A stretch of 64,000 nt of DNA from Obrimoposthia wandeli (taxonomy: Eukaryota): contig CDROCS010003282.1 in assembly GCA_977020255.1 (NCBI GenBank), positions 186,001 through 250,000 of the forward strand, read 5' to 3'. Positions 421 to 22,941 of this stretch are shown one piece after another. Made by a program: the position numbers and the translations under genes. Under the pieces are notes generated by a model. It ran no database searches, was not told the origin of the DNA, and was given only the letters and a program-made list of their open reading frames with translations. The first letter of the stretch is position 1. Every line of letters begins with the position of its first letter.

Positions 421-2648
421 CTTCTACGGAAGTAGATTCTCCCATTCTATTTGGCAAATCGCAGTCCAGTGACACAGACAAGCTTTCCAATGTATCATTG
501 CCATTCAACCTTTCCTCAAGCAGCGTTGGTGCGGTCATTAAGTTTGGCTTCAGTTCTTCACCAATGTCGAAGGTGGAGTTGACGGTAAAGGCAGAATCAG
601 ACGTGAAACGGCTGTGGACATGTAACGAGTGCACAACTGTCAACAATGCCGATAAAACAACGTGTATCGCTTGTGGCAATGGTAACAATATACCTGACTA
701 CGAGGGGAACAGCGAAATATCTTCGCACGACAGTGACGTACTTATAACCCACGAGCCCTACGTCACACAGGAACAGATTAACCGTGCCAAGGCACTTCAA
801 TTGCCGTTCTACTTCTTCTATTTTGAAAATCTTTCTGATTTAGAAGAACAGTCCGATGAAGACACTCAGTTCCTTCCTCAACATAGCTCCGCTTTGAAGG
901 GTCATCTAAATAAAGGGAAATGTACCGACTTTGCCTGTGACCAGAACAATTCCGGTCTTTTCTCGAATATACCGAGCTCTATACCTAGTTCGAATATTTT
1001 TGCAGACGTGCAGCCTAATCAGCATATTCCAAATCTGTTTGCCAAGAATGAGACACCAACGAGCACCGTCAATCTTTTTGGTAATAATACATCCAATGGG
1101 AGTATTTTTGGAAATTCACAAAATCCCGTAGAATCCAAAATCCTTGGAAATCAATCAGCAAACAGTTTGTTCGGAGACAATTCAACGTCTTCAAAATTAT
1201 TCGGTAACATGTCTGTCTCGAGTCAAGGCACCGTCAATCTTTTTGGTAATAATACATCCAATGGGAGTATTTTTGGAAATTCACAAAATCCCGTAGAATC
1301 CAAAAGCCTTGGAAATAAAGCAGCAAACAGTTTGTTCGGAGACAATTCAACGTCTACAAAATTATTTGGTAACACATCAGGCTCGAGTCAAGGCACCGTC
1401 AATCTTTTTGGTAATAATACATCCAATGGGAGTATTTTTGGAAATTCACAAAATCCCGTAGAATCCAAAAGCCTGGGAAATCAATCAGCAAACAGTTTGT
1501 TCGGAGACAATTCAACGCCTACAAAATTATTTGGTAACACATCAGGCTCGAGTCCAAGCACCGTCAATCCTTTTGGTAATAATACATCCAATGGGAGTAT
1601 TTTTGGAAATCTACAAAATCCCGTAGAATCCAAAAGCCTGGGAAATAAAGCAGCAAACAGTTTGTTCGGAGACAATTCAACGTCTACAAAATTATTTGGT
1701 AACACATCAGGCTCGAGTCAAGGCACCGTCAATCTTTTTGGTAATAATATATCCAATGGAAGTATTTTTGGAAATTCACAAAATCCCGTAGAATCCAAAA
1801 GCCTTGGAAATCATTCAGCAAACAGTTTGTTCGGAGACAATTCAACGTCAGCAAAATTATTCGGTAACATGTCAGCCTCGAGTCCAAGCACCGTCAATCC
1901 TTTTGGTAACAGTTCGAGCCTGTTTGGCCAGAAAGATGGCTCTACAGAAAATGTGTCTAAGTTATTCGGCAACGTGGGGAAGTTAAGAAATTCTAATCTA
2001 TTTGGAGAGACACCGCAAGTTAATGTTTCTGATAAGAAAGAACCAATCAATCTTTTTACAAGTAAGAGCGATTCAACAAGCATATTTATCTCGAACCCTT
2101 CATCGAGTACTGCTGAGTCAAGTAGTTTGTTCAAGTTCAATCTTGAGTCTGGGTCTGCAATCAAATTAGTTGAAGCTACTACGGAGAAAGAAGACGAGTC
2201 AGAACCCGGAAACGACCATGATCCACAATTTGAGCCTATTGTTCAGCTGGAGAAAGTGAAACTCATAACGGGTGAAGAGGGGTATGATGTGGAGTTCAGT
2301 GAGCGTGCAAAACTTTATCTATTTGGGAATGGAGAGTGGAAGGAGTGCTGTCTTGGCCCGATGAAGATTCTAAAAATGGAAAAAGAATCCACAACGGAAG
2401 GAAGGCTTTTGATGAGACAGGAGATTGTAGAGATTATTCGCTGTAATCAGAAAGTTACTCGGGAAATACCAAATTTTGTGGTAGCCAAAGAAGGAAAGGC
2501 AAAGAACATGGTTTGCTGGTTTGCTATGGATTTCAGTAAAGAAGAACCCACCAAGGTACAAATGATGATCAAATTCAAGACAGGCGACATCTGTGAGAAA
2601 TTCGTTGACACAATCAAGAAGATCCAAGAAAACTTATCAGAAGATTAA
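1..2648 (+). CDS. RANBP2: RanBP2/Nup358-like nucleoporin, 3' part (5' end lies outside the window); left copy
   Basis: Frame is open from base 3. RanBP2-type zinc fingers (W-x-C-x2-C-x3-N-x6-C-x2-C: KWQCPTCSCMNDNKHKSCPAC, LWTCNECTTVNNADKTTCIAC), LFG/IFG repeats, and a C-terminal Ran-binding domain (DPQFEPIV..TGEEG..FSERAKLY..EWKE..G.MKIL..RLLMRQE). Near-identical to the reverse complement of 56006-58200. Confidence 0.88.
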   Translation, partial: DGKWQCPTCSCMNDNKHKSCPACTTQNPATASLSNPETEAVSRASSTFDLSRFSAGKWQCPTCSCMNDNKHKSCPACTTQNPATASLSNPETEAVSRASSTFDMSKFSDGKWQCPTCSCMIDNKHKSCPACTTQNPEVAASTEVDSPILFGKSQSSDTDKLSNVSLPFNLSSSSVGAVIKFGFSSSPMSKVELTVKAESDVKRLWTCNECTTVNNADKTTCIACGNGNNIPDYEGNSEISSHDSDVLITHEPYVTQEQINRAKALQLPFYFFYFENLSDLEEQSDEDTQFLPQHSSALKGHLNKGKCTDFACDQNNSGLFSNIPSSIPSSNIFADVQPNQHIPNLFAKNETPTSTVNLFGNNTSNGSIFGNSQNPVESKILGNQSANSLFGDNSTSSKLFGNMSVSSQGTVNLFGNNTSNGSIFGNSQNPVESKSLGNKAANSLFGDNSTSTKLFGNTSGSSQGTVNLFGNNTSNGSIFGNSQNPVESKSLGNQSANSLFGDNSTPTKLFGNTSGSSPSTVNPFGNNTSNGSIFGNLQNPVESKSLGNKAANSLFGDNSTSTKLFGNTSGSSQGTVNLFGNNISNGSIFGNSQNPVESKSLGNHSANSLFGDNSTSAKLFGNMSASSPSTVNPFGNSSSLFGQKDGSTENVSKLFGNVGKLRNSNLFGETPQVNVSDKKEPINLFTSKSDSTSIFISNPSSSTAESSSLFKFNLESGSAIKLVEATTEKEDESEPGNDHDPQFEPIVQLEKVKLITGEEGYDVEFSERAKLYLFGNGEWKECCLGPMKILKMEKESTTEGRLLMRQEIVEIIRCNQKVTREIPNFVVAKEGKAKNMVCWFAMDFSKEEPTKVQMMIKFKTGDICEKFVDTIKKIQENLSED
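1064..1910 (+). repeat. 165-bp coding tandem repeat (55 aa FG repeat), 5 full units plus a partial
   Basis: CACCGTCAATC recurs at 1064, 1229, 1394, 1559, 1724, 1889. Confidence 0.92.
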
Positions 2649-2993
2649 CACTTTGTGTATTGTTTATATGTTACTTTATAAATAAAATATGAGCACTTTC
2701 ATCACTTTTTTCAATTTGAGCTGTTTTCGGAAAATGTAGTTATTATCGCGAAGTAATTTTGTACATATCTATGGATCACCAAATGTCAGTTCGCTTCTGT
2801 AAAATGAATGACTTTACTTTCTTAGTTAGTATATTTAGAGTATATCAATAATTTCCGAAAGTTTTGTGTTAAGGAACCATTTCTTAAATCTCAACATTGT
2901 AGGGCATTTACAAGCAGTTTTATATTTATTATGGACAGTCTACTCCCGCTAATTCGACTCCCTTGTTTATCAGACTCTTTTTGGTAGAACGAA

Positions 2994-3176
2994 TTAAGAT
3001 ATGTTAATTACTGACATTTTTTCAATTCCGCCTCTATTTTCTCTCTGTCCCAACTGTTCTACATTCATATTACATGCATTAGCCATATTCTCAATTACTT
3101 CTTCAATATTATTCAAATTAATTTCCTCAATCTCTTCTGGATTGGCAATTTCTATATCTTCTTGATTTAATTCCAA
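2994..3176 (-). pseudogene. Possible N-terminal fragment of a retrotransposon gag (mirror copy 55478-55660)
   Basis: Acidic Asn/Ile-rich stretch then MA..NV, loosely like the start of the gag at 8904; no diagnostic motif. Confidence 0.3.
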
Positions 3177-4784
3177 TATTTCCTTGTTACAAATCAGTCA
3201 AAAAGAAACTCTTGGTTGAAACTGCTGACCGATTTACAGTTACTGTTTCTTCGACAATAAAATATTTGTAACTTCTTCATCTGCTCGAGGAATCTGTTCT
3301 ACTCGGCTCTGTTTATTATTTTTATATCTTCCCGAGGAATTTGTTCCACTCGACTATGTCTTCTAATATTAAACGCGTGTCCTCTTTGACTATCCGTCTT
3401 ATCTCTTTATGACTTCGATTCTCTTATTGCCTTCGAAACACCGTTAAGTGATTAGCTCTCGGCTAGCCTGTTTGTTACTGAATCCGAGCGTTATCAAAAG
3501 GGTGAGTATTATCCAACTGAAATCCGTTTTACTATGTTAAGGTTCAATATATTTATTTTAGTACAATGATTTGAATCACTAAAAATCAAACTACAAATTA
3601 CACTAATAAACGATTATTATGGACAGGGTGACACTACGATTTTACAATTTACTTGGCGGGATACGGTTTATTACACCTTAAGTATTCGTTATTGATTCCC
3701 ATTTAGTACTTTAATTTATGACTTCAATATTCTACACAACTGTTAAACTTCAATTCTTTACTTTATTACTTTAGCACTCAATGGTTAAACCTTTTTTATA
3801 ACACTCCGAATTACTAGGTTATTGGGGCTCTACTGTATTCCTTCGAGTCGGTCTCCTTCATAGTGTCAGCCTCGTTCTAGTTTTTATGCGTCCCCAAGAA
3901 TACTCCTTGTAAAATTGTCTTATTTCCTGAAGTATCGGTGGCTTCGTTCCTTTGATCCGTATGATTTCACGAAGATAATCCTGGTGCAACTGTTCTGCAA
4001 TTCTTTGGGTTCTTTTTCGTATAATCTGACTTTTAAAACCAATACATATAAAAGAAATAAATTACCTTTAATTCTAAAACTCAGTGGTTAGAGAGAAACA
4101 TGATTCTAAAGTTATTATTAAGAAAATATACATTACTTATGAACAACCTATTAACAACAGTTTATTTACTGTACATACTGCTTATAGGACACACTCCTAT
4201 TATATAGGATATTAAGTCAAGGTTTGCATTCACTTGTACATCAAACGCATTAAACATTATAAAGTAATTAATAATTTTAAACTAAAATCTGAGATTTGTA
4301 CTAATATTTGTCAGAAGAAATGTAACCAAATTATTTAACACATTTTTATAAAAAAATTATATTTACTTTTATGAAAAATGATAATCGGTAGATAAAACAT
4401 ATTAAGATTTACAATAAACACGTCCTATGTGGGAATATATACGGTAGTTTATTTAAAATTAATATTTGTATAAAATAAAATCAAAAAAATGTATATTTAA
4501 TGTTACACAGTTTACAGTATACTCCCGTTAATCCAATCCTTTGCACCTCCATATAAAATGGGTCTTCAATTTTATATTTACAAATCGCTTTAATAAAATC
4601 TCTGCTCACTTCAGTACGTTTTATTATCAGGAATTTTTTACACGTTTTAACAAAATAAATTTTGACACAATTATTCAGTGATAAAATTAATATAGTTTTC
4701 GAAGCATGAGTTAAAAAAGCTAGGAGTCCGATTAGAGAGTTTTGAATGCGACGTTGAGACCAAACTTTACACAACTCACTGCAG

Positions 4785-5500
4785 ATCGCAAAGTTTAAAG
4801 GATATGTGGAAAGTTTCTGTGACTTCTTCGCAGAATATTCGAGTTGCGCATTTGTTCAAGGATGGAACGATAGAGAAAAATGTATTTGCGTATAAACACA
4901 TTTGACAGGATTAGAACTTGAAGTGAATAAACATATGACAGGAGCAGAACGTGAAAATTGGGAAACATTGGAAACTGTTTTTCTAGGAAAATTGGTATTG
5001 GGAGATTTAGCGAAAGTAAATAAACGAATTTAGAGAGAACGAAAACAGAAACATGATAAGAGCGTGAATGAATACGCATATGTTTTGAAAATCTTAGGAG
5101 CACGAGCGCATCCAAGAAAAATATTGAGAAAGGCTGCAGGCATAACTGTAGCTGCAGATGTACAATTAGTAGAAGATATTCAGAATCAAGGTGAAATGGC
5201 ATAAGTTTTGTTAGATATATTCAGAGGTGGATTGAAAAGGATAGTTAAGTGTTAAACAAAATAGACACAATAGACAAAATAGTCATCGAGTACAGTTTGA
5301 AGATGAACATAATAAAATATGTATTCAAGGAAGAAAACAGTGTTATATGTGTAAACAAATGAATAAACAAATTTAAACCAATTATGCAAGAAATTGTACA
5401 AGGGGTAAAGAGTTTGGTAATAGTAATTACAGAGGATATAATACACCCACCATAAAATATATGTGGAAGGTATACTCCACTGCAATGGAGAACGAATAAT
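4785..5500 (+). pseudogene. gag: Decayed Ty3/Gypsy gag of an older element
   Basis: Reading through stops gives IAKFKGYVESFCDFFAEYSSCAFVQGWNDREK..THLTG..RENWETLETVFL..RKQKHDKSVNEYAYVLKILGARAHP, collinear with the gag at 8949; CYMCKQ knuckle remnant near 5340. Confidence 0.7.
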
Positions 5501-5978
5501 CAGTACAGGGATAGACAACAATCACCAGGGAGATATAATTATTATGCAGATAGACAGCAGTAGCTCAGAGATATGATAATTCAGGAAGATATAATAATAA
5601 TGTTGAAAAGACAAATAATCGCGAAAGTTCATCGAAATCAAAAGAAAATTTGAGTTACATAAATAATGACAGTGATAGAAATAGTGAAACAGAACTTAGA
5701 CATGAAATAGATTTTGAAGACAATGATAATAAATTCGAACGAAAGTTGGGAATAATTGAAAATTCACCACATACGAAAATGGCGAATTCATCTACGTTAT
5801 CACGTTAAGAAAAAAAGCATCGCACAAGAGACGAGTTTAATGATCTGATGAATTGAGTCTTAGAAGCATATGAGACACCGATAGAAAAGAGTTGTAATGC
5901 ACAACCTATGATTGATCATGTAGAGACAGCGATGAATTCACAGAGTATCGAAAATGTTTACGAAATAATTAGTGTAAC

Positions 5979-7283
5979 TGTTAAGTTTAATTAATTAAAA
6001 GTTAATTAAAAAGTGCATTAGGTGCACATTTATTCCTTTCTGCCCAGTTCAAATTGCCTGGAGATGCTGCCATTTCTCTCTCTCTCTCCCCACAACCGCA
6101 GCTATCTCCCTCGGCATGCGACCGGCCTCCTGATTTTTGCCACTGCTGCTGCGACTAGTTTATCTCTTCCCCTTTCTGGCACGTGCTGGTGGCTAGTCGG
6201 TCCACAATCGTCCCAGTTGCTGTGGGGACTGAAGTGCAGATTATTTCGGACAGCGGCATCGGCCGCCTCTCTTTACTCTTCTCTCACCTCAAGATGCACA
6301 CACTCACAGAGCCTACCTGAATCTATGCCACATCAGCGACAATTATCCTCTCCCCTTACAACAGTACATCTGACTGATTTTATTGATTTTACCCATGTGT
6401 ATGCGTGTGTGGGCATGGCTTCTCCTCCAGTTACCTCTTCCCGATGCAGAAATTCCCCAACTACTGCGCCTATCTATCAATAAAGTCGAATCAAACTGAC
6501 CTATTTTCCCTTGTCTATTCCCTCTACCAAGCCGCCAATTGTGTTCCCCATGTACCATACAAGTCGACAATTCCCATCTGCCCATTCTATCACTTTCCGT
6601 GGCACCCAAACTCTAACTTACCATCTGCAGAAATTCTGCACATAATCGCCCTTTTTCCCTATCGATTATCTTCGCCGCTGCCGATGCTGCAATTCTGCAG
6701 CTGGCATTTATATACACTTGCTATAAATAGCAACAACAAATTGATATTGCTATAAATAGCAACGACAATATTTTCAGTGTACACAACTAAATTGGAAAAT
6801 CTATCGTTTCACAGAAGTCGTATTGATATTGGAAATCAAACAAAAAACAACCTAACACAATTTTGTTGAATTATTGAAAATTGTTGAGGCAGAAGTCGTA
6901 TTGATATTGGAAATCAAACAAAAAACAACCTAACACAATTTTGTTGAATTATTGAAAATTGTTGAGGCAGAAGTCGTATTGATATTGGAAATCAAACAAA
7001 AAACAACCTAACACAATTTTGTTGAATTATTGAAAATTGTTGAGGCAGAAGTCGTATTGATATTGGAAATCAAACAAAAAACAACCTAACACAATTTTGT
7101 TGAATTATTGAAAATTGTTGAGGCAGAAGTCGTATTGATATTGGAAATCAAACAAAAAACAACCTAACACAATTTTGTTGAATTATTGAAAATTGTTGAA
7201 ACAAAAATCATATTGTTATTAAATACAAATTTCGAGAATTTTTAGGACTTTTGGATCGAGTTATTATTATCGTTATTATAACA
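5979..7283 (+). repeat. 5' LTR (1305 bp)
   Basis: Direct repeat of 19443-20823; begins TGTTAAG, ends TATAACA. Confidence 0.97.
6813..7200 (+). repeat. 78-bp minisatellite inside 5' LTR, 5 units
   Basis: AGAAGTCGTATTG starts at 6813, 6891, 6969, 7047, 7125. Confidence 0.95.
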
Positions 7284-7284
7284 T

Positions 7285-7302
7285 TGGTGAGCCCGACTCG
7301 GA
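7285..7302 (+). promoter_or_regulatory. Primer-binding site (tRNA not assigned)
   Basis: TGGTGAGCCCGACTCGGA starts 1 nt after the 5' LTR; TGG is complementary to the tRNA CCA end. Confidence 0.75.
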
Positions 7303-8903
7303 ACACTGAACACCACAGGTCATTTATTATTTTTGATTTTTAAATTGTTTTATTTTATTTTATAAAAACTAAATTTTTCTGCATAATTATAGTGCATATA
7401 CATATATATGAATATATTTTTTTTTTAACTTAATTTGATTGTAGTAATTTATTTGGAGTAATTTGATTGTAGTAATTTATTTGGAGTAATTTGATTGTAG
7501 TAATTTATTTGGAGTATTTTGATTTTCCTAAAGAAAATTTTTGCAAAAATATTAATTTTGTGTTAGAAAATTGATTATTGTATTTAAAATTATATTTATT
7601 TCTAATAGTGATAGATAGAATTTCATAATCGTATAAATATTATTTTTGAAAATTAGGGATTCTTATAGTCTCACGAGTATTGTTTAAAAATTTTCGACCA
7701 TTTTTGAGCGGGACTGTTCCTCACTCTGCGGTAATCGAAACAAAGGTTCCGAGACCAAAATAAGCAGATAACCGTAGAATAAGGGAGCAGTTGTGGTCTT
7801 GGTGGTTGGTTAAGAAGGTAGAAAATAGAATTGCGGGAGACTGTAGGAATACCTTGACCTAAACATTTCTGAAAATATAATTACTGTTTAAAAGTTCATA
7901 TATCATAATTTTTATTAAAAACAATTTTACGGTTTTACAATTGTATTTGATTTTTGATTCAACTACTTATACCATTTATATTATCTCTCGAAGTTGGACT
8001 TACTATTTTACATTCATTTTTATTCTTTGGTAAACTGAATTGGAACCATAGAGTTGTTACATTAAAAAGTTGACATCATTAAAAATTATAACTAATTCAT
8101 AATTGTTAAAATCGTATATATTGTATACCATTTTTCAAATTTAACTTTGAAAAGTATCAATAAATAATCCTATTGTTCTGCGTATATATAAATATTTTTA
8201 TTCCTATCTTCATTGATAAAGTATAACAAACAATTAATTGACTTGTTGTTTGTAATAAAAGTAATCAGATCAAATAATATTTTATTAATAAAAAAAATAA
8301 AAAAAAATTTATACGTAACAATAATATAACTGAATTAGATTGACCCTTAGCGGTGGTGTATAGCTGATTTATTCAAAAGTAAGGATACTGTGATCAACCT
8401 CAAGCACTTACAGAATTTTGAACAAGATTTTTCTGTATCCATTTTTCATAATTGCGAAACAAGGATAGCCGACATCCAATAGGTCAGCAATCTTGAGAAG
8501 TCTGGGACAAATTATCTGATTCAAGAAAAGCTAAAAATTGGTTATTTAAACATTATAAATTCAACAACTTTAATAAAATCTACAACATAGTGATAAAAAG
8601 CGTTGAATAAATAAAAATAATAAAATTCATAAATCCAAACGTAGCGCTAGTCTTCACTGGCGACGAATTCAAGCCCGACTAGTAAGAACAGAACCTAAAG
8701 AATCACCACCACAGAGACCTAAATCTCAAATAAGCTTTAGAACAAATAGCGAATTTTTCCCAGAAACTTCATTACAACACCAACACCCAATCCAACTAAA
8801 CTTAACCAGCTCAGAAAGTCTAACAGATAGCCTTACTAACCAAACACTAGAAACCGATAGCTCAACAGAAGCTACTCAAAATACAAACACACCAGAACCC
8901 GAA

Positions 8904-10409
8904 TTGAACGAACCAAATAATATAGAAATAGATAATCAACCTCAAATAATGGCTGATCATAAATTAAATGTTCCTTTAGACGCTTTCAATGGCGATAAAT
9001 CTTCACTACCTGAATTTTTAAATAGATTTGATTCATTTGCTCAGGCATTTGAATGGACTAATGAAGAGAAACTTAGGGTTTTTCCAGCGTATTTAAAAGG
9101 CACTGCCTTAACAATTTATAGAGGATTAAACAATGAACAAAAGGACACATGGGACCATTTAGTTCAGAATTTTCAAAATATGATTTTGGGAACCCAATCA
9201 GAGCAAAATTACTTAAATCAGTTTAGACAACATGAGCAACATTTAGGAGAACCCACAAATATTTTTGCAATTGAATTAAGACGTTTAGCCCTAAAATCAT
9301 TCCCTGGAATTGAGGAAGTTTTAAGAGAGCGCTTACTGTTACATCAGTTTCTACATGGATTAAATAATAAAATCAAAAATCATCCAGCTCTACTAGAAGT
9401 AGAAAATTTTCAGCAAGCTGTAAATAAGGCTCAGCTTGTAGAAACAAGATTAAACATGTTACAACAATCTGAAGTTTCAGCATTAACCTTTGAAAAAATA
9501 CAAAGACCAACAACACCACCAAATTTCAATCAAACTCAAAACTATAACCCAAATACACAATCTAATTACCAAAGCCAACAACAATATACACCACCGACAA
9601 ATAACTTTTATAGAAATCAAACAAACAGAAACTATACAGACTCACAAATTACACAAAGACCTTTCCAAAAATGTACAAATTGTGGACTGAAAAATCACAC
9701 AATAGAGAATTGTTATAAAATAACCAACAACAAATTTTGTAGATTTTGTAAAAAAGACAATCATACTATTGAAACTTGCCGAAAATTGTTATACAGACAA
9801 GGTAATAATATAAGACCACAAAATAATAACTTTAACAATCCTAATAATAATTTCAAAAATACTAATAGTAATTTTAGAAGCCCATATAATAATTTCAATA
9901 ATCAAAATAATCAAGCTAAATATTTTAATACTAATACAAAATTTTGTAAAATTTGTTATATGAAAAATCACAATACTGATGAATGTAGCAAACTAAATAC
10001 AATGATTAACCAGTTTGGTAACGCAGCAGTGAAACAACAACAACCACAACCACAGAGTCAAAAAACAGTACAGTTTAACAATCAAAATCAACAATATGCT
10101 TACAGAAACCCAATACATACTATTGAAAACACTGATATAAATCAGGAAACAGAGGAGGTTGCATTGATGAGATTAAGACAACAAGAAATAGATAATCGCT
10201 ATAAAGAAACACATCAGCAATACCAAAACAATGAGCAAAACACAAATAGTACCAACTCTCAATCTGAATTCGGAGAAATATTTAGAAACGGTTGTCTAAC
10301 ATTAGAAAAAAGAACACAAATAAGTACAAAAATTAATCAAACTACTCAAACACAAAATAAAAAATCGAAAAATAAAAATAAACGAAAATCACCAAAAAAT
10401 AGTACATAA
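8904..10409 (+). CDS. gag: Gag (capsid plus three CCHC zinc knuckles); first ATG at 8949, frame open from 8607
   Basis: FNGD..EFLNRF..WTNEEK..LKGTA..W..L capsid pattern; CX2CX4HX4C three times (CTNCGLKNHTIENC, CRFCKKDNHTIETC, CKICYMKNHNTDEC); N/Q-rich linkers; basic C-terminus. Confidence 0.93.
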   Translation: MNEPNNIEIDNQPQIMADHKLNVPLDAFNGDKSSLPEFLNRFDSFAQAFEWTNEEKLRVFPAYLKGTALTIYRGLNNEQKDTWDHLVQNFQNMILGTQSEQNYLNQFRQHEQHLGEPTNIFAIELRRLALKSFPGIEEVLRERLLLHQFLHGLNNKIKNHPALLEVENFQQAVNKAQLVETRLNMLQQSEVSALTFEKIQRPTTPPNFNQTQNYNPNTQSNYQSQQQYTPPTNNFYRNQTNRNYTDSQITQRPFQKCTNCGLKNHTIENCYKITNNKFCRFCKKDNHTIETCRKLLYRQGNNIRPQNNNFNNPNNNFKNTNSNFRSPYNNFNNQNNQAKYFNTNTKFCKICYMKNHNTDECSKLNTMINQFGNAAVKQQQPQPQSQKTVQFNNQNQQYAYRNPIHTIENTDINQETEEVALMRLRQQEIDNRYKETHQQYQNNEQNTNSTNSQSEFGEIFRNGCLTLEKRTQISTKINQTTQTQNKKSKNKNKRKSPKNST

Positions 10410-12312
10410 AATACATATAATTTTAACAAAATCATCCAGAATTTATGGAAAATAATTCAAATAATATTTATGATATGTATAATTACAAATATAATAAAAC
10501 CTATAAATGCTCTTGAAGCATATGATTGTTCAAAATATAGTATTCAAAATAAATATTCACTAATGGATTTACAACAATGCGCCGACGCAGATCCAAATGA
10601 AGTAAAAGTTAAAACCACCAAGTTATTTCATGTATACCAGGAAACAGATTACATAAATACAGAAGTTTTCGAATGTAGAGTACATGTGGAAACATTCATA
10701 ACATATTGCGGACAACACAGCCATAATTCAATTGTTAAGCCAGCATTAGGAAAAACACCAATAATTGTTGACGCGTTAAATTGTAAAGATGCTTTTGCAA
10801 CAGGCGAACTGAGAATAGATAGAGAAATAAAAGTAAAAGCAATAAAAAACAAAATAATACAACAAATGATTACAGTGGTAGGAACTATCAAATCTGACGG
10901 AGAATGCACAACAGGATCATACGTCGTAATGGGAGTTAAACAAAATGGTTTAGTAGTTATAAAAAACTTTGAGGTAGAACTAAGAACATTTAAGGCAACA
11001 TTTGATCCATCTACAAATACCATGGTGACTATGCCTTTTTGTGCAGCGAATATCGGATATTGTAACACAGGATCCTCAATTTTATACTATAAGGTAAAAA
11101 CAGACCAATGTAAATTAATACTACTAAAATCAGAAAATTTCCAAATAATTCAAGGTCAAAGATTCAAAGATGATCCAGAGCTAGATCAACGAATTCCAAA
11201 AAATATACTTAAAAAATATAGAACTAGAAAAATACAAAAAACATCAACTCCAACTATTTTAATGTCAACTGAACAAGGTTCAGGTATGCGATTTATTAAA
11301 AAGAAAGAGGAATCCCGATGTGGACACTCTGTTTATTCAACTAATTATAAAGGAATATATCTAAGTAAAGAAAAAATTTATAATGCAAAAACTACACCAA
11401 CAAAATTTGATATAAAAAATTACGATTATTTCAATAATAAATTAGATTATTTTTATCACAAAGGATTAATGACAATAGAAGCTATTTATAGAGAAACAAT
11501 AATGAATGACTGTAAATTAAATCAAGAAATTTTGAAAACAAAACTAGCAATTATTGCTACAAATCCAGAATTAATAACACCATTATTACCGTTACCAGAT
11601 GGTACTTTCGGAAGAGTAATGGGAGAGGTATTATATACGTATCAATGCCAAAAAGTAATAGTTAATATAAGAAATCACAATAAATGTACTAAAGAATTAC
11701 CAATTTCATATAAAAATCATTCACTATTCGTAGAACCAATCACCAGAATAATACTTTTTAATACATTCAGTATAAAGGAAATGAATTGCTCAAACATAAT
11801 GGCACCTCATTATCAAATCTCAAAGGATATTTGGATATCACTCCCAAGAAGAGACATAGTCGCTCAACCATTAAAATTACAATTAACCGACCTCAATAAC
11901 GACATAGAAATAAAGTCAGACAATGAACTCAATACAAAAGGTATTTACATACAAGAAGACATAGACAAATTAAGAAAAGAAATTTTATTTCCTCAAATTA
12001 GATCACGAATTTTAACACAAATAATTGAAAGATCAGTACCAAACGGAATTGGCCGTCCTGATTATGATTTATTACTTTCTCCAAACCATTACATAAAAGC
12101 TACAAAAAATACAATGTCAAAAATATGGGGGAAAATTTTTAATATTTGGACAAGCATTTTCTGGACTGGTAGGAATATATGCACTACTAATATGCTTTAA
12201 AATACTATTGAGTCAAATTTTATCCACATACTATATTTATAAAGTTGGAGGATTAACATGGAAACTAATATTAGGATGTTTTCCATTTTTGGCAAAATTT
12301 CTTATATTTAAT
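10410..12312 (+). CDS. env: Chuvirus/Monjiviricetes-type fusion glycoprotein (env-like), with a +1 frameshift at G5 12127-12131
   Basis: Signal-like LWKIIQIIFMICIITNIIKPINA then LEAYDC; YSLMDLQQC; ITYCGQHSHNS; DCKLNQEILKTKLAI..NP..GEVLYTYQC..CTKELPI..FVEPITRI. After the shift: GKFLIFGQAFSGLVGIYALLICFKILL..GLTWKLILGCFPFL membrane region. Motifs match my recollection of chuvirus-like glycoproteins. Confidence 0.8.
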
Positions 12313-15300
12313 CATCATCAAAATACTGTAAACGCATTATCAAACGAAATGCGAGAAACAAATTTACAAAAAATAGTAGACAATAAAAATAAAGAGAATA
12401 CAGAATCTGCACAATACCCCGATTTAGAAAGATATAAAGAAGAAATAATAGTTAAAAAATCAACTGCACCAACAATATATACTATAAATCAAATGGATAA
12501 TGATAAACGACCTTATGTAAAAGTTGAAATAAATGAGTATAAATTAAAAGCTTTAATTGACACAGGATCAAGCGTAACAGTTTTAGACGAATCTTTCTTA
12601 AAACCACACCAAATATTGCTACTTCTCACAGATAATAGTCAAATAACAGCAGCAAATGGTCAACCCGTAAATATTATTGGTAAATTAGATTGCATTTTTA
12701 AAATAGGAGATAAATTTATAAAAATACCTACTAGAATAATGAAAAATTGTCCATGTCAGATGATAATAGGAATAGATACATTGAGGAAATTAGGAAACAA
12801 TTTTCACTTCGACTTTAAGAAAAATCAAATTAAAGACATTTACAGACCAAACGCTAAAAGCGAATACGAATTGGAAATAAAAGGAGATATCATCCTTCAA
12901 CCTAGAACAGAAACAATATTACAATTACAAACTAACATAGTTACAGAAAAAGACATCTTATTCGAACCTTATAAATATCAACAGGAAACATTAAATTACG
13001 TTCTACCAAATATAATTTGTAAAATAAAAAATAATACAATACCTATCAGAATACTAAATGGAGACATAAACGAGATTCATCTCAAAGTAGGAACACGCCT
13101 GGGAAAAATAAGTGTTATAGAGAATATAGAATTAATTAACAATGAAAAAATAGAAGACAATTCCACTGTAAAATTTGAAAATATTAGATTAAATGATTAT
13201 GAGAAATCAAAACTAAAATCATTGATGGAGAAATATGACGTAATTTTTGCAAAAAATGAATATGACCTAGGACGAACAGATTTAATTAAACATAACCTTC
13301 CGTTAACTATTAATACAGCAATCAAACAACGACCTTACCGTATCCCATACGCTTACAGAGAAGAAGCTCAAAGACAGGTAAAAGGAATGTTAGAGAATAA
13401 AATCATAAGAAGAAGTTTTTCAGCATGGACATCTCCAGTTGTTTTGATAAAAAAAAAAGATGGTTCACTAAGATTTTGCGTAGATTACAGAAAATTAAAT
13501 GAGATCACACATAAAGACACATATCCGCTTCCAAGAATTGATGAAATCTTAGATAAACTAAAAAATGCAAAAATATTTACAACCTTAGATTTACAAAGTG
13601 GATATTGGCAGATAGAAATAGAGGAATCAGATAAAGAAAAAACAGCATTCTCAACAGGAGAAGGATTATACGAATTTAACGTTTTACCTTTTGGATTAAC
13701 AGGTGCTCCAGCAACATTTCAGAGATGCATGAGCCACATTTTGATGGACGCCGATCATGTCATGGTTTATATCGACGATATTCTAATTTTTTCAAAAAAT
13801 TTTGAAGAACATTTAAAAGATTTAGAAAATGTATTTCTTAGATTAAAAATAGCAGGTTTAAAATTGAAACCAAAATAGTGTGAATGGATGAAAGACAAAG
13901 TGAATTATCTAGGTCACGCGGTATCAGCAAAAGGCATTCAACCAGATGAAAGTAATATAGAAAAAATAAAGAATTTTCCAATTCCAAAAACAGTAAAAAA
14001 TATACAAGAATTTTTAGGACTTGCAGGATATTATCGTCGATTTATCAGAAACTTTGCACAAATAGCAACACCATTAAACAAACTTATTAAAAAAGATGAA
14101 AAATTTGAATGGGAAACGGAACAACAAGAGTCATACGAGTACCTAAAACAAAAATTGATTGAAAAACCTATATTGAGATATCCTAACTTCAACAACTCGT
14201 TTCTAGTAATGACTGACGCAAGTGGATACGCGTTAGGAGCAGTACTAGGACAACAGGATAATAACGAAAAAGATCATGTGATAGCGTACGCAAGCAGAGG
14301 TCTTAAAAAACACGAAATAAATTATTCAACAATAGAAAGAGAATGCCTCACTATTTGCTTCGCAATGGAACATTTTAAACATTACTTATTAGGTCGAAAA
14401 GTTCACGTTTATACTGATCAAAGACCATTACAGTGGCTACTAAATCATAAAGATACGACATCTAGATTAATGAGATGGGCGTTAATTCTCCAAAAATATG
14501 ATATTGAAATTAAATATAGAAAAGGTAAATCAAACGCCAATGCAGATTGCCTATCTAGAATAAGAGAAGAAGTAAATGTAATAAATTCCAATGGTACCGA
14601 ATTAAATATTTTTACAATAATCAAGGCTCGATATGATGATAAAGTAATCACCGATCTTCAAAGCAAAGATACGGAATTACAACAAATAATTAAGTATATC
14701 ACCATCAATCAAGTTCCAACAGATGAAAAATTAAGAAAACATTTAAAAACTCATGAATCTCGCTATAAATTCAGTAACAATATTTTACATTATTTAAACG
14801 ATAAAAATCTGTACTCACTAGTTATACCTAAAGAAATACAATGCCAATTACTCCTTCAATATCATAACGGAGCTTTAGGAGGACATATGTCAACAAAAAA
14901 GACACATTCAAGATTAAATTTAAAATATTATTGGATTGATATGAAAGAAGATGTAAAAAATTGGTGTAATACTTGTGAAATATGTCTTAAAAGAAAAAAC
15001 ACCTTACGTACCACAAAGATACCTTTAAAACCAATACCGTATCCATCGGCCCCCATGGAAACTGTTGCCATGGATGTAATGGGGCCATTACCTGAAACAC
15101 CCCGAGGAAATCGATATATAATAGTATTTTCAGATTATTTTACAAGATGGCCAGAGGCTTTTCCAACACATGATCATAAGGCTGAAACCATCGCGAAGGT
15201 TTTAGTCGAAAAATTATTTTTACTTTCGGTGCACCCCGAAAATTATTAACCGACAAAGGTCCTGAATTTATAAATAATGTATTAGCATCAATAGCTGAAA

Positions 15301-16028
15301 TCTTTCACATAAAAAAGATCAATACAACACCATATCACCCTCAAACCGACGGATTAGTAGAAAGATTTAATAGAACCCTCGAAGATATGATGGCATCATA
15401 TACAAACAACAACCAAACAGATTGGGATTTGCACATACCCCCATGCCTTTTTGCATATAGAACATCAGTACATGCATCTACAGGAGAAACACCTTTTTAC
15501 CTTATGTTCCTCAGAGATCCGCAAATGCCTATTGATCTAACATTACTACAACCTACTACACAATACCTAGAAATACCTGAATACAAAATAGAAATTAGAG
15601 AAAGAATAAAACTAGCATTTGAAAAGGCTAAATTATTTGTAAAAAACATACAAGAAAATTACAAAGAATATTATGATAGAAGAACTAAACCATCAAATAT
15701 AAAAATCGGAAGTAAAATAATGATTCACAATCCACAAATCAATGTAGGATTATCACACAAATTATCAAAACCATACAAAGGACCATATACAGTTATTAGT
15801 ACCAATGGAACTAACATAACAGCTAAACTCGACAATGAGCTAAAATCAAAAGAAATAAGAACACACATAAATAGATGTCGACAAGTACCAGAAGAGAATA
15901 CAACAGTAAAAAGCCATAAATATAATTTGAGATCAAACACAAAAAACACAGTTTTACAAATGTTACCAATACAAGATATACAGAGAAAAATATTAAAAAC
16001 AAAAAATCTAAATGGAATAAGGCAATAG
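12313..16028 (+). pseudogene. pol: Pol (protease-RT-RNase H-integrase), broken by TAG at 13876 and a 1-nt deletion at 15209-15213
   Basis: ALIDTGSS (12559); LRFCVDYRKLN; LDLQSGYWQI; PFGLTGAPATFQR; YIDDILI; TDASGYALGAVL; YSTIERE; H..GGH..C..C; VAMDVMGP; LTDKGPEF and TDGLVERFN after frame repair; GPY motif. Confidence 0.96.
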
Positions 16029-16042
16029 TTATATCAATAAAG

Positions 16043-17290
16043 GAATTTTCAAAAATTTTAATAATATTCGCAATTTATCTCTTTATAAGTAAAAACGTGC
16101 AAGGAACAAATGCTACCAAACTAAATGATAAAAAACTAACTATAAAAAATGTTATAAATAAACATGACTCGACAACACATCTTATAAAAAATTTTGGTTT
16201 AATTACGATAATACCAGAAATCACATCTATAAAGTTAAAAATCTCGCTCTTTATAAACAAAACTGGAAATATACAAATTACACAAAAAGACAGAAAACAA
16301 AACATAACAATAATAGGAATAAAATCACGAAAATATACAATACCATTCTTAAGAGATGAAACACAATATGAAATTAAAATAAAATCAAATACACAAAACA
16401 TTACACTTTATCAAAGAACTATAGAAACTCACATATACCTAGCATCAATATTAGAAACAACAGCGAAATATATATCAAAACATAAAATAATGATAAAATG
16501 GGAATTTCAACTAAAAATAGACGACTTAGATAAAGCCCTAATTAGAATTAGATATAGAGGACATAATGTTAATTTTTGGAAAAACTCAGAAAAAAAATTA
16601 GGAAAAACACAAACTAAAACAAATTTAACCATAGAAAATATAAGATATCCAGAGAAAATAATAATACAATATAGAGAATGTGTAATCACAAATAAACCAA
16701 TGATGTATAGAAGTTGGGGACACATTTTGAATACTTACAAAAACATAACTACTTTAGAAATAATAGGAAAAAAGATATCAAAAATGTTTCAACCAACTCT
16801 TTTTTGCGGGAGTTGGCTAATAATAAAAATAAAAGAACCTATTTTAAATTCAACAAAAGTAATGAAAATATATTTAACACAATATACAACAAAAATATTT
16901 AAGAAAATATCATCAATCATTTCTAAAGAAAACATACAAAACCAGTCAACCTTTTTAAAAAATACAATAAATTCATCAAAATCGATGAACTTAAAACATA
17001 TGGCATTTTTTAGTCAACGAAATCATTCACAAAACATATATCGTGCAGAATTTAAGATAATAATAGCAATAATAATTGAAATGTTTAATATTTTAATAAA
17101 AGTAATAAGAAAAATAAGAAATTTTGAAAGAATTAAAACTAAAAAATCATTTCACTTAAACAAACTGTATGGACCACCAGGTCCACTCATAACATCCCTA
17201 ATACCAAGTGGTACAAATTCATCCAATACATCAATAGATACGGTAATCAAGAACTATAAGCACAAAGAGAAAAACAACACTGATTTGTAA
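16043..17290 (+). CDS. Putative type I membrane glycoprotein with an FN3-like beta domain (accessory ORF)
   Basis: Frame open from 15926; signal-like KILIIFAIYLFISKNVQG; IKW..IRIRYRG..W..TNLTIENIRYP pattern; nine N-x-S/T sequons; hydrophobic IIIAIIIEMFNILIKVI then basic residues; diverged homolog at 21325-21650. Confidence 0.55.
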   Translation, partial: EFSKILIIFAIYLFISKNVQGTNATKLNDKKLTIKNVINKHDSTTHLIKNFGLITIIPEITSIKLKISLFINKTGNIQITQKDRKQNITIIGIKSRKYTIPFLRDETQYEIKIKSNTQNITLYQRTIETHIYLASILETTAKYISKHKIMIKWEFQLKIDDLDKALIRIRYRGHNVNFWKNSEKKLGKTQTKTNLTIENIRYPEKIIIQYRECVITNKPMMYRSWGHILNTYKNITTLEIIGKKISKMFQPTLFCGSWLIIKIKEPILNSTKVMKIYLTQYTTKIFKKISSIISKENIQNQSTFLKNTINSSKSMNLKHMAFFSQRNHSQNIYRAEFKIIIAIIIEMFNILIKVIRKIRNFERIKTKKSFHLNKLYGPPGPLITSLIPSGTNSSNTSIDTVIKNYKHKEKNNTDL

Positions 17291-17355
17291 AAATCAAAAG
17301 ATTTATTTATTATTTTTTTTAAATAAGACTTAAAAACTTTTTAATAATTTAGAAA

Positions 17356-17664
17356 ATGAGAAATTCAAAATTAGTACAGAATAATAGAAGAAGATATAAG
17401 AGACAGAAAAAATGGGAAAATAAATTGTTAATAGAGAATATAAATCTGAGATCGCATTTAAAAGACAAGGAAATGGAATGTGAACGAATGAATAATGCTT
17501 TTGACGTTGCAATTGAAAGATTAGAATATAGCCAATCAAGCCAGGAAATACTAGTACAAAGACTCAGAGAAGCGTTAAATTCACTAATATCCTTACGATC
17601 AATGGTGAATCACTTGATGGGATTCCAACATATAGAAAGCGATGATTCTGGATGCGACAATTAG
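17356..17664 (+). CDS. Small basic/coiled-coil accessory ORF (102 aa)
   Basis: ATG start, RRRYKRQKK basic cluster, heptad-like helix, acidic tail; AG acceptor-like site 3 nt upstream. Confidence 0.5.
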   Translation: MRNSKLVQNNRRRYKRQKKWENKLLIENINLRSHLKDKEMECERMNNAFDVAIERLEYSQSSQEILVQRLREALNSLISLRSMVNHLMGFQHIESDDSGCDN

Positions 17665-17981
17665 TAAATTCCCTAGTGAGTAGAATTAAAATCATTTAAT
17701 AAAGACTGAGAATGAAATAGAGATTATGAGCATGATTTAGGAAAATAATGTTTAATGAATTAAAAAGGATAAAGAGAGAAAAATAATAATAATAAACATA
17801 ATTATATCTATATATATATCTATACTTTATTTATGATTATCGAGCAACAAGGAACTAGTACAATATTAGATATACTCTTGATTAACCAACTAACTAATGA
17901 ACTAATAATTTATTTTTATTTTTGCATGAGCTTTATGACTAATGACCTTGCTGTATTCTTATTCTGTTATATATATCACAG

Positions 17982-19126
17982 ATGGAATACTCAACAAACA
18001 AACGGAAATGGATCCGTGTAGTGGGAGAAAGTTGTTTAGACGGTCCTTCACCACCAGTTATAGATTTAAGCAACGATGAAATACAAACAAAGTGTACTCC
18101 AGAAATGAATATCTTAGCAAAGTTCCTTTATAGAAGAATGAGACAGTATAGGAAAGAGAAACTTAAAAATAATGATGAGAGCAAACACATTTTTGAAAAT
18201 CAAACGTTCATCCCAAATAAATTGAAAATCACTAAAACTAGTAGAAAAGGTGTCATAATCACCATGCATCATACAAAAAATGTAAGGATAAGTTTAATAG
18301 AATTGGTAGGTGAATTGATAGACATAGAGGAGATAGAGATACATGTAGCAGAAGGACGAGCCCACTTAATGAGTAAGCAAGAGAAAGATTTAAGTTACAT
18401 GTTCCTCCAAAATCATTCATACACCATCAGTAAAAACGAATTAATAAACGAATATTTATTAAAATTTAGTCCTAGACGCAATACATTTTTTATAGAGCTT
18501 ATAAAAAAGACAAATAAAATCATGTTCATAGAAAATAATACTACAAAACAGGCACCCGTTAAATATTTTATGGATTGTGAAATGGCCACCGCAGTTAACA
18601 AGTAAGTATCACGATAATAGATGAAAAGAACCAGATCGTGTTACATGAAATAGTCACACCGAGGGAAAGAATCCGAAATTATGTACATCGAGTGACTCAT
18701 TTTACGGAGAAATCATTGACAGGAAGAGCCGATGCGGAAGACATTATAACAAGAGCTCAAACAATACTAGTCGGAAACATCCTAGTAGGAGCAGGAGTAG
18801 AAAATGATTTAAAAGTTTTACGACTCGAAAGATGTCAGTTTGCAAGAATAGTAGATCTAGGTGCATCCACTGAAATTAGATCAGAACTAGGCCATAATCA
18901 TCCAAAAATAGCACTAAAAACAATGATAGAGAAATATTTTGGAGAAGAATCTCAAAAGAAATATCACACTTGTTTAGAAGACGCAAGAAACATTAAGCGA
19001 GTTTTTGACAAACGTAAAGAAAGACTGGTGGAGGAGTTCCGTTTGAATGATTTGTTGGGTACCCCAAATGAGATATCCGACTCCGACTCTGATTCAAACG
19101 ACTGTTTTATTCTAGACAACGTATAG
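17982..19126 (+). CDS. REX4/ISG20-like DEDDh 3'-5' exonuclease with N-terminal extension, split by a frameshift near 18600
   Basis: ExoI YFMDCEM (18570-18584) ends ORF 17982-18605. The other frame continues VSITIIDEKNQIVLHEIVTP..IRNYVHRVTHFT, ExoII NILVGAGVENDLKVL, IALKTMIEKYF and ExoIII HTCLEDA. Confidence 0.85.
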
Positions 19127-19442
19127 TTAAAAGGTATTATTATTACTGCACGAACAATTGACCTATTTGTTATCAAAAACCTATCAACTTTTAAACTATT
19201 TATCATTTTTAAAATGACTTCGTATACAAATTTTTCTGCAAATTACTGAAATTTTGATCCTGACATCAACTTTTAATGTAAGAACAAATTTTATACTCTT
19301 ATTATTTTATGCATCATGCAATAGATATTTTTACTACTCGCGAATGTGTAACATAAAAATTGACGTTTTACTTTTCATCTTCAAATTTTTTCATTTATTT
19401 TTGCGAACGTCAGAGGTCTGACTTGGTTTACCCCCATAGGAT

Positions 19443-20823
19443 TGTTAAGTTTAATTAATTAAAAGTTAATTAAAAAGTGCATTAGGTGCACATTTATTCC
19501 TTTCTGCCCAGTTCAAATTGCCTGGAGATGCTGCCATTTCTCTCTCTCTCCCCACAACCGCAGCTATCTCCCTCGGCATGCGACCGGCCTCCTGATTTTT
19601 GCCACTGCTGCTGCGACTAGTTTATCTCTTCCCCTTTCTGGCACGTGCTGGTGGCTAGTCGGTCCACAATCGTCCCAGTTGCTGTGGGGACTGAAGTGCA
19701 GATTATTTCGGACAGCGGCATCGGCCGCCTCTCTTTACTCTTCTCTCACCTCAAGATGCACACACTCACAGAGCCTACCTGAATCTATGCCACATCAGCG
19801 ACAATTATCCTCTCCCCTTACAACAGTACATCTGACTGATTTTATTGATTTTACCCATGTGTATGCGTGTGTGGGCATGGCTTCTCCTCCAGTTACCTCT
19901 TCCCGATGCAGAAATTCCCCAACTACTGCGCCTATCTATCAATAAAGTCAAATCAAACTGACCTATTTTCCCTTGTCTATTCCCTCTACCAAGCCGCCAA
20001 TTGTGTTCCCCATGTACCATACAAGTCGACAATTCCCATCTGCCCATTCTATCACTTTCCGTGGCACCCAAACTCTAACTTACCATCTGCAGAAATTCTG
20101 CACATAATCGCCCTTTTTCCCTATCGATTATCTTCGCCGCTGCCGATGCTGCAATTCTGCAGCTGGCATTTATATACACTTGCTATAAATAGCAACAACA
20201 AATTGATATTGCTATAAATAGCAACGACAATATTTTCAGTGTACACAACTAAATTGGAAAATCTATCGTTTCACAGAAGTCGTATTGATATTGGAAATCA
20301 AACAAAAAACAACCTAACACAATTTTGTTGAATTATTGAAAATTGTTGAGGCAGAAGTCGTATTGATATTGGAAATCAAACAAAAAACAACCTAACACAA
20401 TTTTGTTGAATTATTGAAAATTGTTGAGGCAGAAGTCGTATTGATATTGGAAATCAAACAAAAAACAACCTAACACAATTTTGTTGAATTATTAAAAATT
20501 TTTGAGGCAGAAGTCGTATTGATATTGGAAATCAAACAAAAAACAACCTAACACAATTTTGTTGAATTATTGAAAATTGTTGAGGCAGAAGTCGTATTGA
20601 TATTGGAAATCAAACAAAAAACAACCTAACACAATTTTGTTGAATTATTGAAAATTGTTGAGGCAGAAGTCGTATTGATATTGGAAATCAAACAAAAAAC
20701 AACCTAACACAATTTTGTTGAATTATTGAAAATTGTTGAAACAAAAATCATATTGTTATTAAATACAAATTTCGAGAATTTTTAGGACTTTTGGATCGAG
20801 TTATTATTATCGTTATTATAACA
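19443..20823 (+). repeat. 3' LTR (1381 bp), with six 78-bp units at 20275-20740
   Basis: Matches 5' LTR apart from one extra 78-bp unit, (CT)5 versus (CT)6, and a few substitutions. Confidence 0.97.
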
Positions 20824-21324
20824 TAACTACAAAAAGATTGATTTAACCGCTAGATGAAGCAAGCGAAGCTCCAAAAGTTTTACAAAACGTTACAACACGT
20901 TAAATCGCACAAATTTGGAGAATTGCGAACATAATTGTTTAAACATAGTCATGATAACCTGACTTACAGAGGTAACGCAAGGATTATTTAAAGGATATGA
21001 TCATTATGTACAGAGAGTTAACCAAAAGGATACACTAAATATTTCAATTCGATTAATTAATGGAAATATTATGCTTGAGAAACTTAACGTGTATCAAACG
21101 ATAAAGACATTTTGAAGAAGATTAGCAGAGAAAATTTGAATAAACGGAATGAATTTGTTATTTCATTATAACGATAGATCGTTGGATGATGAAGACGTAC
21201 CGGTTGAGTGCAGATACCCGATAGAAAAGAAATCAGAAGAGAGAATCGATGCGATTTATGTAGGACGAGAGGAATTAGAAGATCATAAAGGATTGTCAGG
21301 AATATTGAATATATACTTAGCATC

Positions 21325-21650
21325 AAAATTAAAAAGGACAGCAAAATATATAACAAAATATCAAATCATGATAAAATGGAAAATTCAACTAAAATAGATG
21401 ACTTAGATAAAGCCCTCATAAGAATAAGATATAGAGGACATAATTCCCATTTTTGGAAATATACAGAAAAGAAACAGGAAAAATCACAATCCAAAACCAA
21501 TTTAACCATAAAAATATAAGATATCCTGAGAAAATAATCATGGACAAAAGAGAATGTTTAGTCACTAACAAACCAATAATGTAAAGACAATGGGACAAAT
21601 ATTTGAGACTTGTAAAATCTAACAAAATTAACGAGTTTAGGAAATAAAAT
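21325..21650 (+). pseudogene. Decayed homolog of the FN3-like accessory ORF, from an older related element (mirror copy about 51762-52073)
   Basis: IYLASKLKRTAKYITKYQIMIKW..DDLDKALIRIRYRGHN..W..KTNLTI..IRYPEKII..REC..TNKP aligns with 16430-16750; many differences are synonymous. Confidence 0.85.
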
Positions 21651-22941
21651 ATCTTAACTATATCAACCTATGATTTTCTGTGGTCATTGGTTTAAAATTA
21701 AAATTTATGAATATATAAAAGATAAAAAGAAAAAAAGAAAAAGAAAATCATGTGAAAATTAATTTAAGTTTCATTTATAACCTTATATGACCTCCATCTT
21801 ATTTAAATTTTGGCACTAATTTGAATTTAGCCTAATTAAATTCGGGTGAATGCCTATGTTGCCATTGGTTTGTTTATATTTATCAAAAAAACAGCTGTTA
21901 AATTTATTTAATTTCGCTGTGTTTACTAACCTACATGTTTATGAATTTTATTCTTTTAAAAATCAACTATTGAGAATTTGTAAGCTATTGTATTACTTTA
22001 TTATTTTTTAAATTATTAAATATTTTGTATATACTTTATTAAATTATTATTCATAAATATATTCATTAATTATTAACAAAAATTAAACATATATATTTAT
22101 ATTAAACATGGGCAACGTTGCATGCCTTCAAAAAATGTTTATGATTAAGCACTTATTTCATGCTGTTTGGTACACATCCATCGAACTGAATCTCTGTCAG
22201 CTCTATACTTCAATTTCTTCTTTTCTCTGCATATTCTGCAGGTTTTTTCTTTATGAATAAACTCTAAAATGTCAAATTTGATAATTTAAGATATTAATAC
22301 CAAATGGCGACTTTTTCAATGTTTACATGGGCAACGTTGGCCTAATGCCTTAAATTCTTTATAGATTTTAAATTACCATCTCATTAAAACAAAATTTGCG
22401 TCAAATTAAATTTGTATCATATGAGATCTGCTTTTGCAGATATGTAACCCTGCATTACCGGGCCACCATTTAACTATGATTATATTCAATAAGATAATAA
22501 ATATATAAAAGAATGTGTATATGTATGTGTGTGTGTGAAAATTCTATATAAGTTATTGCTTATATTATGTGTCTGTGGGTATGTTTGGAAATTCTAAATA
22601 AGAATATATAAATAATTTTTATACTAGGTGTGTGTGTGTGAATGTGTATGTGTGTGAAACTTATATATAAGATATCGCTTATACTGTGTATGTATGGAAA
22701 TTTAATTTAATTTAATTTAAAATTTAAGGATATAATAAGATATTTTATACTAGGTGTGTGTATGCGTGTATGTATGTAAAATCCATATATATATATAAGA
22801 CATTGCTTATACTGTGTATGTGTGTATGTATGGAAATTCTATAAATTGATATAATAAGATATTTTTATACTAGGTGTGTGTATGTGTATGTATATGTTTG
22901 GAAATTCTATATAGAATATATAATTTTATACTAGATGTATA

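Follow-up and report, generated by a model that had tools for sequence, protein, structure and literature searches.

The window, a 64,000-nt stretch of an Obrimoposthia wandeli contig, contains a 14.8-kb Ty3/gypsy LTR element (5979–20824; features are on the forward strand unless stated otherwise) that carries a long open reading frame behind its integrase, here called ORF X. The element is bounded by a 5′ LTR (5979–7284) and a 3′ LTR (19443–20824), both of the TG...CA type and 99.1% identical over 1242 nt, with the target-site copy TAAC ahead of the former and directly after the latter. It is present in only one arm of a giant inverted duplication (121–33600 and 36000–58200, about 99% identity), and the mirror arm retains an empty site with a single TAAC near 52570. 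A primer-binding-site-like sequence starting with TGG is found at 7285–7298; we take it to resemble a tRNA-Trp primer-binding site, and a search for tRNA genes gave none. Both LTRs hold a 78-bp tandem array (6812–7220 and 20274–20760) that differs by one unit between them, and the stretch ahead of the 3′ LTR (19425–19442) is C-rich, unlike a typical polypurine tract. Elsewhere in the window, a Nup153/RanBP2-like host ORF of 1316 codons on the reverse strand (56006–59956) combines RanBP2 zinc fingers with FG repeats and a RanBP1 domain; the mirror of this ORF, at 1–3400, looks broken. Near the palindrome centre, weak matches to endonuclease VII and DNA polymerase B2 (30355–31302) suggest a Polinton/Maverick-like relic.

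Pfam domains in the element follow the order gag, gB-type/Monjiviricetes fusion protein, protease, reverse transcriptase (RT), RNase H and integrase, that is, gag, gB-type env and PR-RT-RH-IN. The gag gene (8949–10409, frame open from 8607; Retrotrans_gag E=2e-4) ends at an in-frame TAA (10407–10409). It is followed by a gB-type (class III) env (10410–12200; PF24664, E=9e-77), which has an internal signal with no ATG ahead of the signal core and a frame break near its end. The next frame (12097–13878) encodes the env anchor, the protease and the N-terminal part of RT and ends at a stop within RT. The remainder of RT, RNase H and the N-terminal part of integrase lie at 13879–15249, with a frame break within the integrase core, and the C-terminal part of integrase at 15186–16028, with a Y-x-L-R motif at 15921–15932, just ahead of a second signal. 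PR-RT-RH-IN with gag upstream, two TG...CA LTRs, a short target-site duplication and a primer-binding site place the element in Ty3/gypsy (Metaviridae), and its env, of the gB/class III type and located after gag and before pol, is that of GAG-ENV-POL gB-type errantiviruses. The intact ORFs of that group are missing from the window copy, which is damaged by two stops (10407–10409 and 13876–13878) and three frame breaks, one inside env (12097–12200), one inside the integrase core (15186–15249) and one at the overlap of integrase and ORF X (15926–16028); in the relatives described below the ORFs are open.

Two further genes lie between ORF X and the 3′ LTR. A small charged ORF (17353–17664) belongs to no family and has no convincing match in the relatives. 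The second is an accessory DEDD/RNase T-type exonuclease gene (17946–19126), split at 18599–18605, with 31% identity (E=1e-23) to an ORF of the relative L001 that itself matches PF00929 above cut-off; a separate exonuclease gene is present in L001 and L002, there as one ORF. Contig depth summed over this gene reaches roughly one hundredth of the pol value, and depth is no copy number; many element copies may be without it.

ORF X is a stop-free frame of 454 codons (15926–17290) that overlaps the integrase tail by 103 nt (15926–16028) in the −1 frame, as the preliminary description had proposed. A chance ORF was rejected, since 2000 Markov resamples of its DNA gave longest frames of 60 codons on average and 126 at most. 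The first in-frame ATG is at 16490, downstream of a putative internal signal (16043–16105) that comprises a basic n-region, a hydrophobic core (16055–16090) and small residues at −3/−1, as judged by hydropathy only; the earlier observation that no ATG precedes the signal-like stretch thus holds. It is followed by domain 1 (16160–16429), domain 2 (16431–16837) and, further on, the hydrophobic-then-basic segment noted earlier, a candidate membrane anchor (17051–17107, KD 2.26) with basic residues next to it. Glu and Asn lie inside this anchor; the relatives' anchors are clean. The frame ends in a cytosolic tail of 60 aa and the stop (17108–17290), with weak likeness to the L001 tail (E=0.06). 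By eye, a Pro-Pro cluster lies 20–30 residues past the anchor in the tails of P0004, P0005, L001 and L002 and in the window at 17170–17270. Nine N-glycosylation sequons had been counted previously, with the caution that composition inflates such numbers. The count is in fact 14, against a shuffle mean of 6.4 (P=0.002), and 10 of these lie in the ectodomain between signal and anchor (4.3 in shuffles, P=0.004). None of eight other ORFs fell below P=0.06, and env was not enriched (2 versus 5.6); a composition artefact was rejected because X exceeds its shuffles and the other ORFs do not. Hydropathy and the sequon excess fit a type I membrane glycoprotein, albeit one with polar residues in the anchor.

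ORF X was under purifying selection. Domain 2 has a broken homologue at 21311–21704 (78% nucleotide identity), somewhat longer than first noticed, with a mirror copy on the reverse strand in the second arm of the duplication (51705–52087). Comparison of X with these two gave dN/dS values of 0.29 and 0.33 (bootstrap 0.16–0.54; 129 and 125 codons), not near 1, and the past selection suspected from synonymous changes is thus borne out; the same comparison in other frames gave 1.1–2.0. In the first pair, 45 of 88 differences fall at third positions. The homology is limited to 16431–16837 of X. We rejected the possibility that the homologue at 21.3 kb is part of the LTR element, as its position is outside the 3′ LTR and the empty arm carries it too. 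The 14.8-kb element is inserted into an older relic element that has its own gag relic (4779–5165). In that relic (4779–5978 and 20825–21704), the homologue of domain 2 comes about 1.3 kb after gag, with no env or pol between them.

Relatives of the element were collected by an env search among long proteins, which gave five (P0001–P0005), and a metagenome scan, which gave at least four loci (L001–L004) in 591 stretches; L001–L003 come from one assembly. The window gag matches P0002, P0003 and P0005 at E=1e-19 to 1e-25. A tree of six rows, drawn from the element's own matches, had no starred branch. Four of the nine relatives are uninformative about the region after integrase: P0001–P0003 lack RT and stop behind their protease domains, and L003 reaches no further than env. 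Among the matches listed, all five relatives that reach past integrase have one open frame running from env through integrase, the Y-x-L-R motif and a signal to an ectodomain and an anchor. The polyproteins measure 2855 aa (P0004), 2694 aa (P0005), at least 3426 aa (L001), 3703 aa (L002) and 2693 aa (L004). The signal lies 13–41 aa after the Y-x-L-R motif (about 45 codons to the signal core in the window), and in L002 and L004 Met is absent from the stretch that separates the motif from the signal core. The ectodomains, of about 120–284 aa, are followed by a hydrophobic anchor and, in most members, a cytosolic tail of 60–115 aa; in L004 the anchor is weaker and there is almost no tail. L001 contains a third module of signal, FN3-like unit and anchor (4529–5530), located between two protease domains of the same polyprotein, which brings the predicted membrane passes to six. 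P0001–P0003 are Gag-Env-protease polyproteins with 2–3 protease-like repeats, and their ORFs include neither RT nor integrase; weak Bcl-2 matches occur in P0001 and P0003 and ankyrin repeats in P0003. They are Burro-like and may be non-autonomous.

Fibronectin type III (FN3) folds are best documented in the relatives. Five units of about 95 aa in L001 and L002 are mutually similar (phmmer E down to 1e-7 in a small database), and their alignment folds as seven strands (pLDDT 77, pTM 0.67). The Foldseek PDB matches listed for this unit are mostly FN3 (best E=1.7e-3, probability 1.00, TM 0.62), with none at E≤0.001; a search of a viral structure library likewise gave no match at E≤0.001. A wide structure search aligned 70 residues to a designed Ig sandwich (Z 8.5, rmsd 1.9) and 82 to a monobody (Z 8.3, rmsd 3.4), followed mostly by FN3 chains at Z 7–8, a middling range. 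The profile of the relatives matches IGF1R FN3 domains at E=0.024, and the P0004 ectodomain gives an FN3 lead (0.89). As modelled, the repeat unit of the relatives is a seven-stranded FN3 sandwich. The Cys-rich ectodomains of P0005 and L004 belong to no family and gave no FN3 evidence.

For X itself, the preliminary description had placed an FN3-like core at 16430–16750. Weak support for such a fold was found, but it is best for domain 1 (16160–16429) and not for that core. The sole Pfam match of domain 1 is fn3 (PF00041; E=0.067, below cut-off, with 13.8 bits against a gathering score of 25), and 20 of 3000 shuffles score as high against the profile of the relatives; an hhalign comparison gave P=0.014 and a probability of 3%. 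ESM features of X are all FN3 at 0.86, which is under 0.9 and counts as a lead only. The same profile was not significant against the whole of X (247 of 2000 shuffles as high) or its ectodomain (240 of 3000), and domains 2 and 3 gave no match to it; a single-sequence AlphaFold run of the ectodomain (pLDDT 29) gave no usable model. Taken together, these leads indicate that X likely contains a predicted FN3 fold. Homologues of X were absent from three large searches (7999 candidates, 8000 longer candidates and 1.84 billion representatives), and scans of viral contigs found nothing. Among PDB sequences there was no homologue, the one match, to eL6, being unrelated (E=0.048), and BLASTP of X against the P0004 ectodomain gave E=0.73. 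Judged from sequence, X appears to share slot and topology with the relatives, a common ancestry not being demonstrable.

The state of the window copy was compared with other copies by aligning the contigs of four runs to 10300–19300; X1, X3 and X4 represent one sample and X5 another study, and contig depth was not taken as copy number. Across all identity bands, 50,140 contigs aligned from X3, 53,604 from X1 and 45,472 from X4, and since the matches span all bands, many diverged copies exist. About 99% of contig depth differs at the RT stop (13876–13878), so this stop is private to the window copy. The gag and env of the window are in one frame but for the TAA between them, and an in-frame stop between gag and the env signal is also found in L003 (3058–3060). 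The RT stop is among the best 40 substitution rows (368 further rows follow), and the gag-env stop is absent from them. RNA structure after the gag-env stop was found in neither the window nor L003. It may be a stop that family members share and read through; between gag and env, P0002, P0003, P0005, L002 and L004 contain none.

The −1 offset between integrase and X invites the idea, raised in the preliminary description, that a ribosome slips at the heptamer A AAA AAT (16001–16007). The heptamer is indeed there, in the integrase (zero) frame and within the overlap, and a programmed −1 frameshift could plausibly serve to reduce X to a fraction of the Pol output. Heptamers of the X XXY YYZ type are at background frequency, however, with 44 in frame in the six ORF pieces (0.33–0.67 per 100 nt), two of them in this overlap. 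The RNA behind the one at 16001–16007 is less stably folded than its shuffled versions (z +0.85, +1.83 and +1.58; pseudoknots lie outside the model). Among the matches listed, the offset is conserved in none of the five informative relatives, all of which are fused and share the Y-x-L-R motif before the second signal, and a heptamer at the junction was found in one of the three DNA loci checked. The contigs speak to the same question. In the indel tally, 12 of 59 rows are listed; ten belong to one class and lie away from the breaks, and the two of the other class lie in break overlaps. One of these two falls in the integrase-core overlap (22, 8 and 7% of depth in X3, X1 and X4) and the other in the overlap with X (30, 12 and 13%), which makes up 1.1% of the stretch. 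The latter row thus reaches only a minority of depth, and X5 (22 contigs) covers the junction at depth 5.7 with no variant, both of which suit a programmed slip; homopolymer noise, seen as the ten-row class, is as large as the signal in X1 and X4 (11–22% of depth), with 0.4–10% in X3. The integrase-core break must be a lesion, however, so the true frequency is higher than these shares suggest; the row at the junction with X is at least as strong as that of this certain lesion. The two arms of the inverted duplication differ by 0.77 indel events per kb. Given the fused relatives, the indel row in the overlap, the background frequency of heptamers and the lack of downstream structure, the offset is most likely a lesion of the window copy or an assembly indel, one of its five breaks, and the slippery site is most likely incidental; we regard programmed frameshifting as very improbable.

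It is just as improbable, in our assessment, that X is a separate gene expressed from a spliced or subgenomic RNA or from a non-AUG start, like the third ORFs of many gypsy elements. Third ORFs are usually separate and spliced in the portion of PMC5408684 available, Burro accessory ORFs can be either separate or fused in that of PMC6431247, and the interval 15872–16026 contains six yAG sites. Upstream of the signal, on the other hand, the frame of X is open only through the integrase overlap, and among the matches listed the five informative relatives are fused in frame. We therefore consider it probable that the element, a Burro-like GAG-ENV-POL Ty3/gypsy element, encodes one Gag-Env-Pol-X polyprotein in which X comes last. 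From the gag ATG to the X stop this amounts to about 2,780 codons, the length suggested at the outset as possible. The domain order, the in-frame fusion in relatives, the signal-ectodomain-anchor layout by hydropathy, the selection on X and the modelled FN3 fold of the relatives' unit are shown by the data.

The proposed polyprotein has two internal signals; the env of the window uses an ATG-less internal signal of the same kind as X. In ER topogenesis, alternating internal signals and stop-transfer anchors set which segments are lumenal and which cytosolic, and in RNA viruses with polyproteins, signal peptidase releases the glycoproteins. By the same logic, the first internal signal would send Env into the ER lumen, and the Env anchor would bring the chain back into the cytosol, where PR-RT-RH-IN, like Gag, would lie. 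Through the second signal X would enter the lumen and be glycosylated there, and its anchor would leave a short cytosolic tail, the polyprotein crossing the ER membrane four times. Host signal peptidase would free Env and X, the latter a fast-evolving second type I glycoprotein, and the element protease the enzymes. Env and X would arise in a 1:1 ratio in one membrane, X having no start codon of its own; it would need no ATG because signal peptidase would release it from the polyprotein. With dN/dS of 0.3 and in-frame fusion in the relatives, the original suggestion of a selected second surface-type protein that needs no own ATG has stood up well.

What X does once in the membrane can be stated less firmly, as constant topology and exchangeable receptor-like ectodomains point to a host-facing role but do not choose among functions. 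It is plausible, if short of probable, that X works alongside the class III fusogen in attachment or triggering and occupies a slot in which lineages exchange one ectodomain for another. The same architecture could also place X at the host cell surface as a receptor decoy, an immune modulator, a superinfection block or an adhesion protein where cell-cell transfer takes place, which we hold to be possible yet rather doubtful. Cytokine and adhesion receptors typically contain FN3 folds, most members have cytosolic tails of appreciable length, and the ectodomains are interchangeable, with the further copy between two protease domains in L001; small membrane proteins of other gypsy elements, such as sORF2, mediate cell-to-cell transfer (PMC11952523, as far as its available text goes). 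Heavy glycosylation and a synthesis tied obligately to that of Env and Pol, however, fit a virion protein equally well. The polar residues of the anchor, the end of the relic homology at 16837 and a domain 3 that matches nothing would agree with X being in decay or secreted in the window lineage, where domains 1 and 2 would be real and the C-terminal third and the anchor would have drifted. This seems unlikely, as all 454 codons are open, a basic cluster directly follows the anchor as in the relatives, and the contigs of the runs cover the whole of X.

Returning to X as the final module of the polyprotein, part of this architecture has precedents. In the planarian element Burro/GYPSM1, env is part of a single polyprotein, fused in frame to gag ahead of it and to pol behind it (PMC6431247, in the part available, as for the following comparisons), a feature found also in P0002, P0003, P0005, L002 and L004. 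The Burro env is related to mononegavirus fusion proteins, and P0001 and P0003 carry Bcl-2-like/ankyrin matches as Burro does. The window element, in contrast, measures 14.8 kb against more than 30 kb and gave no Pfam match to Bcl-2, BIR, MATH or ankyrin domains, and the available account of Burro has nothing after integrase and no fibronectin (PMC6431247). GAG-ENV-POL errantiviruses of the HSV/gB type occur in nematodes, bryozoans and flatworms (PMC13524379, again from the available parts). They resemble the window element in ORF order, gB-type env, Ty3/gypsy pol and multiple copies, but only three ORFs are treated there. The available main text has 0 mentions of fibronectin, exonuclease, polyprotein or frameshift, and the text of its seven supplements, figures apart, has 0 mentions of fibronectin/FN3/immunoglobulin/exonuclease. 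According to the available text of PMC9094657, Atlas virus (Belpaoviridae) has a single 2,828-aa polyprotein that ends in a fusogen and a presumed attachment protein; it differs in its BEL/Pao pol, its class II fusogen and the position of both glycoproteins, adjacent after pol, whereas the window pair flanks pol and its second member is FN3-like. LTR elements of bdelloid rotifers are alike in having variable ORF3 cargo after pol, including small transmembrane proteins and DEDD exonucleases, but these are separate ORFs with no FN3, and the cargo usually replaces env (PMC5408684, in the part available). In Dingle, integrase is followed by a gB-like env (10.1101/2020.05.07.078311, in its available part). 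A second FN3-like membrane protein after integrase had no description in the literature searched, outside which lie most subscription papers and the Repbase notes. Env inside a polyprotein is thus known, and the notable feature here is a variable, predicted type I membrane module that recurs in frame after the integrase of Burro-like elements. In the available parts of PMC13524379 and PMC6431247, the region after integrase of the published GAG-ENV-POL and Burro elements bears no annotation.

The elements described here would encode a retroelement polyprotein with four predicted membrane passes (six in L001) around cytosolic enzymes. The usual assumption for env-bearing gypsy elements is a single envelope protein. 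It is possible, and we advance it tentatively, that the elements described here form an invertebrate Ty3/gypsy clade with a two-glycoprotein envelope in one polyprotein, where a conserved class III fusogen lies before Pol and a swappable, host-receptor-like attachment protein (FN3 or Cys-rich) after integrase sets tropism; this would parallel herpesvirus gB and its partners and would have arisen via capture of cell-surface domains. A recurring second membrane module with a variable ectodomain is a candidate for the cell choice of gB-type elements.
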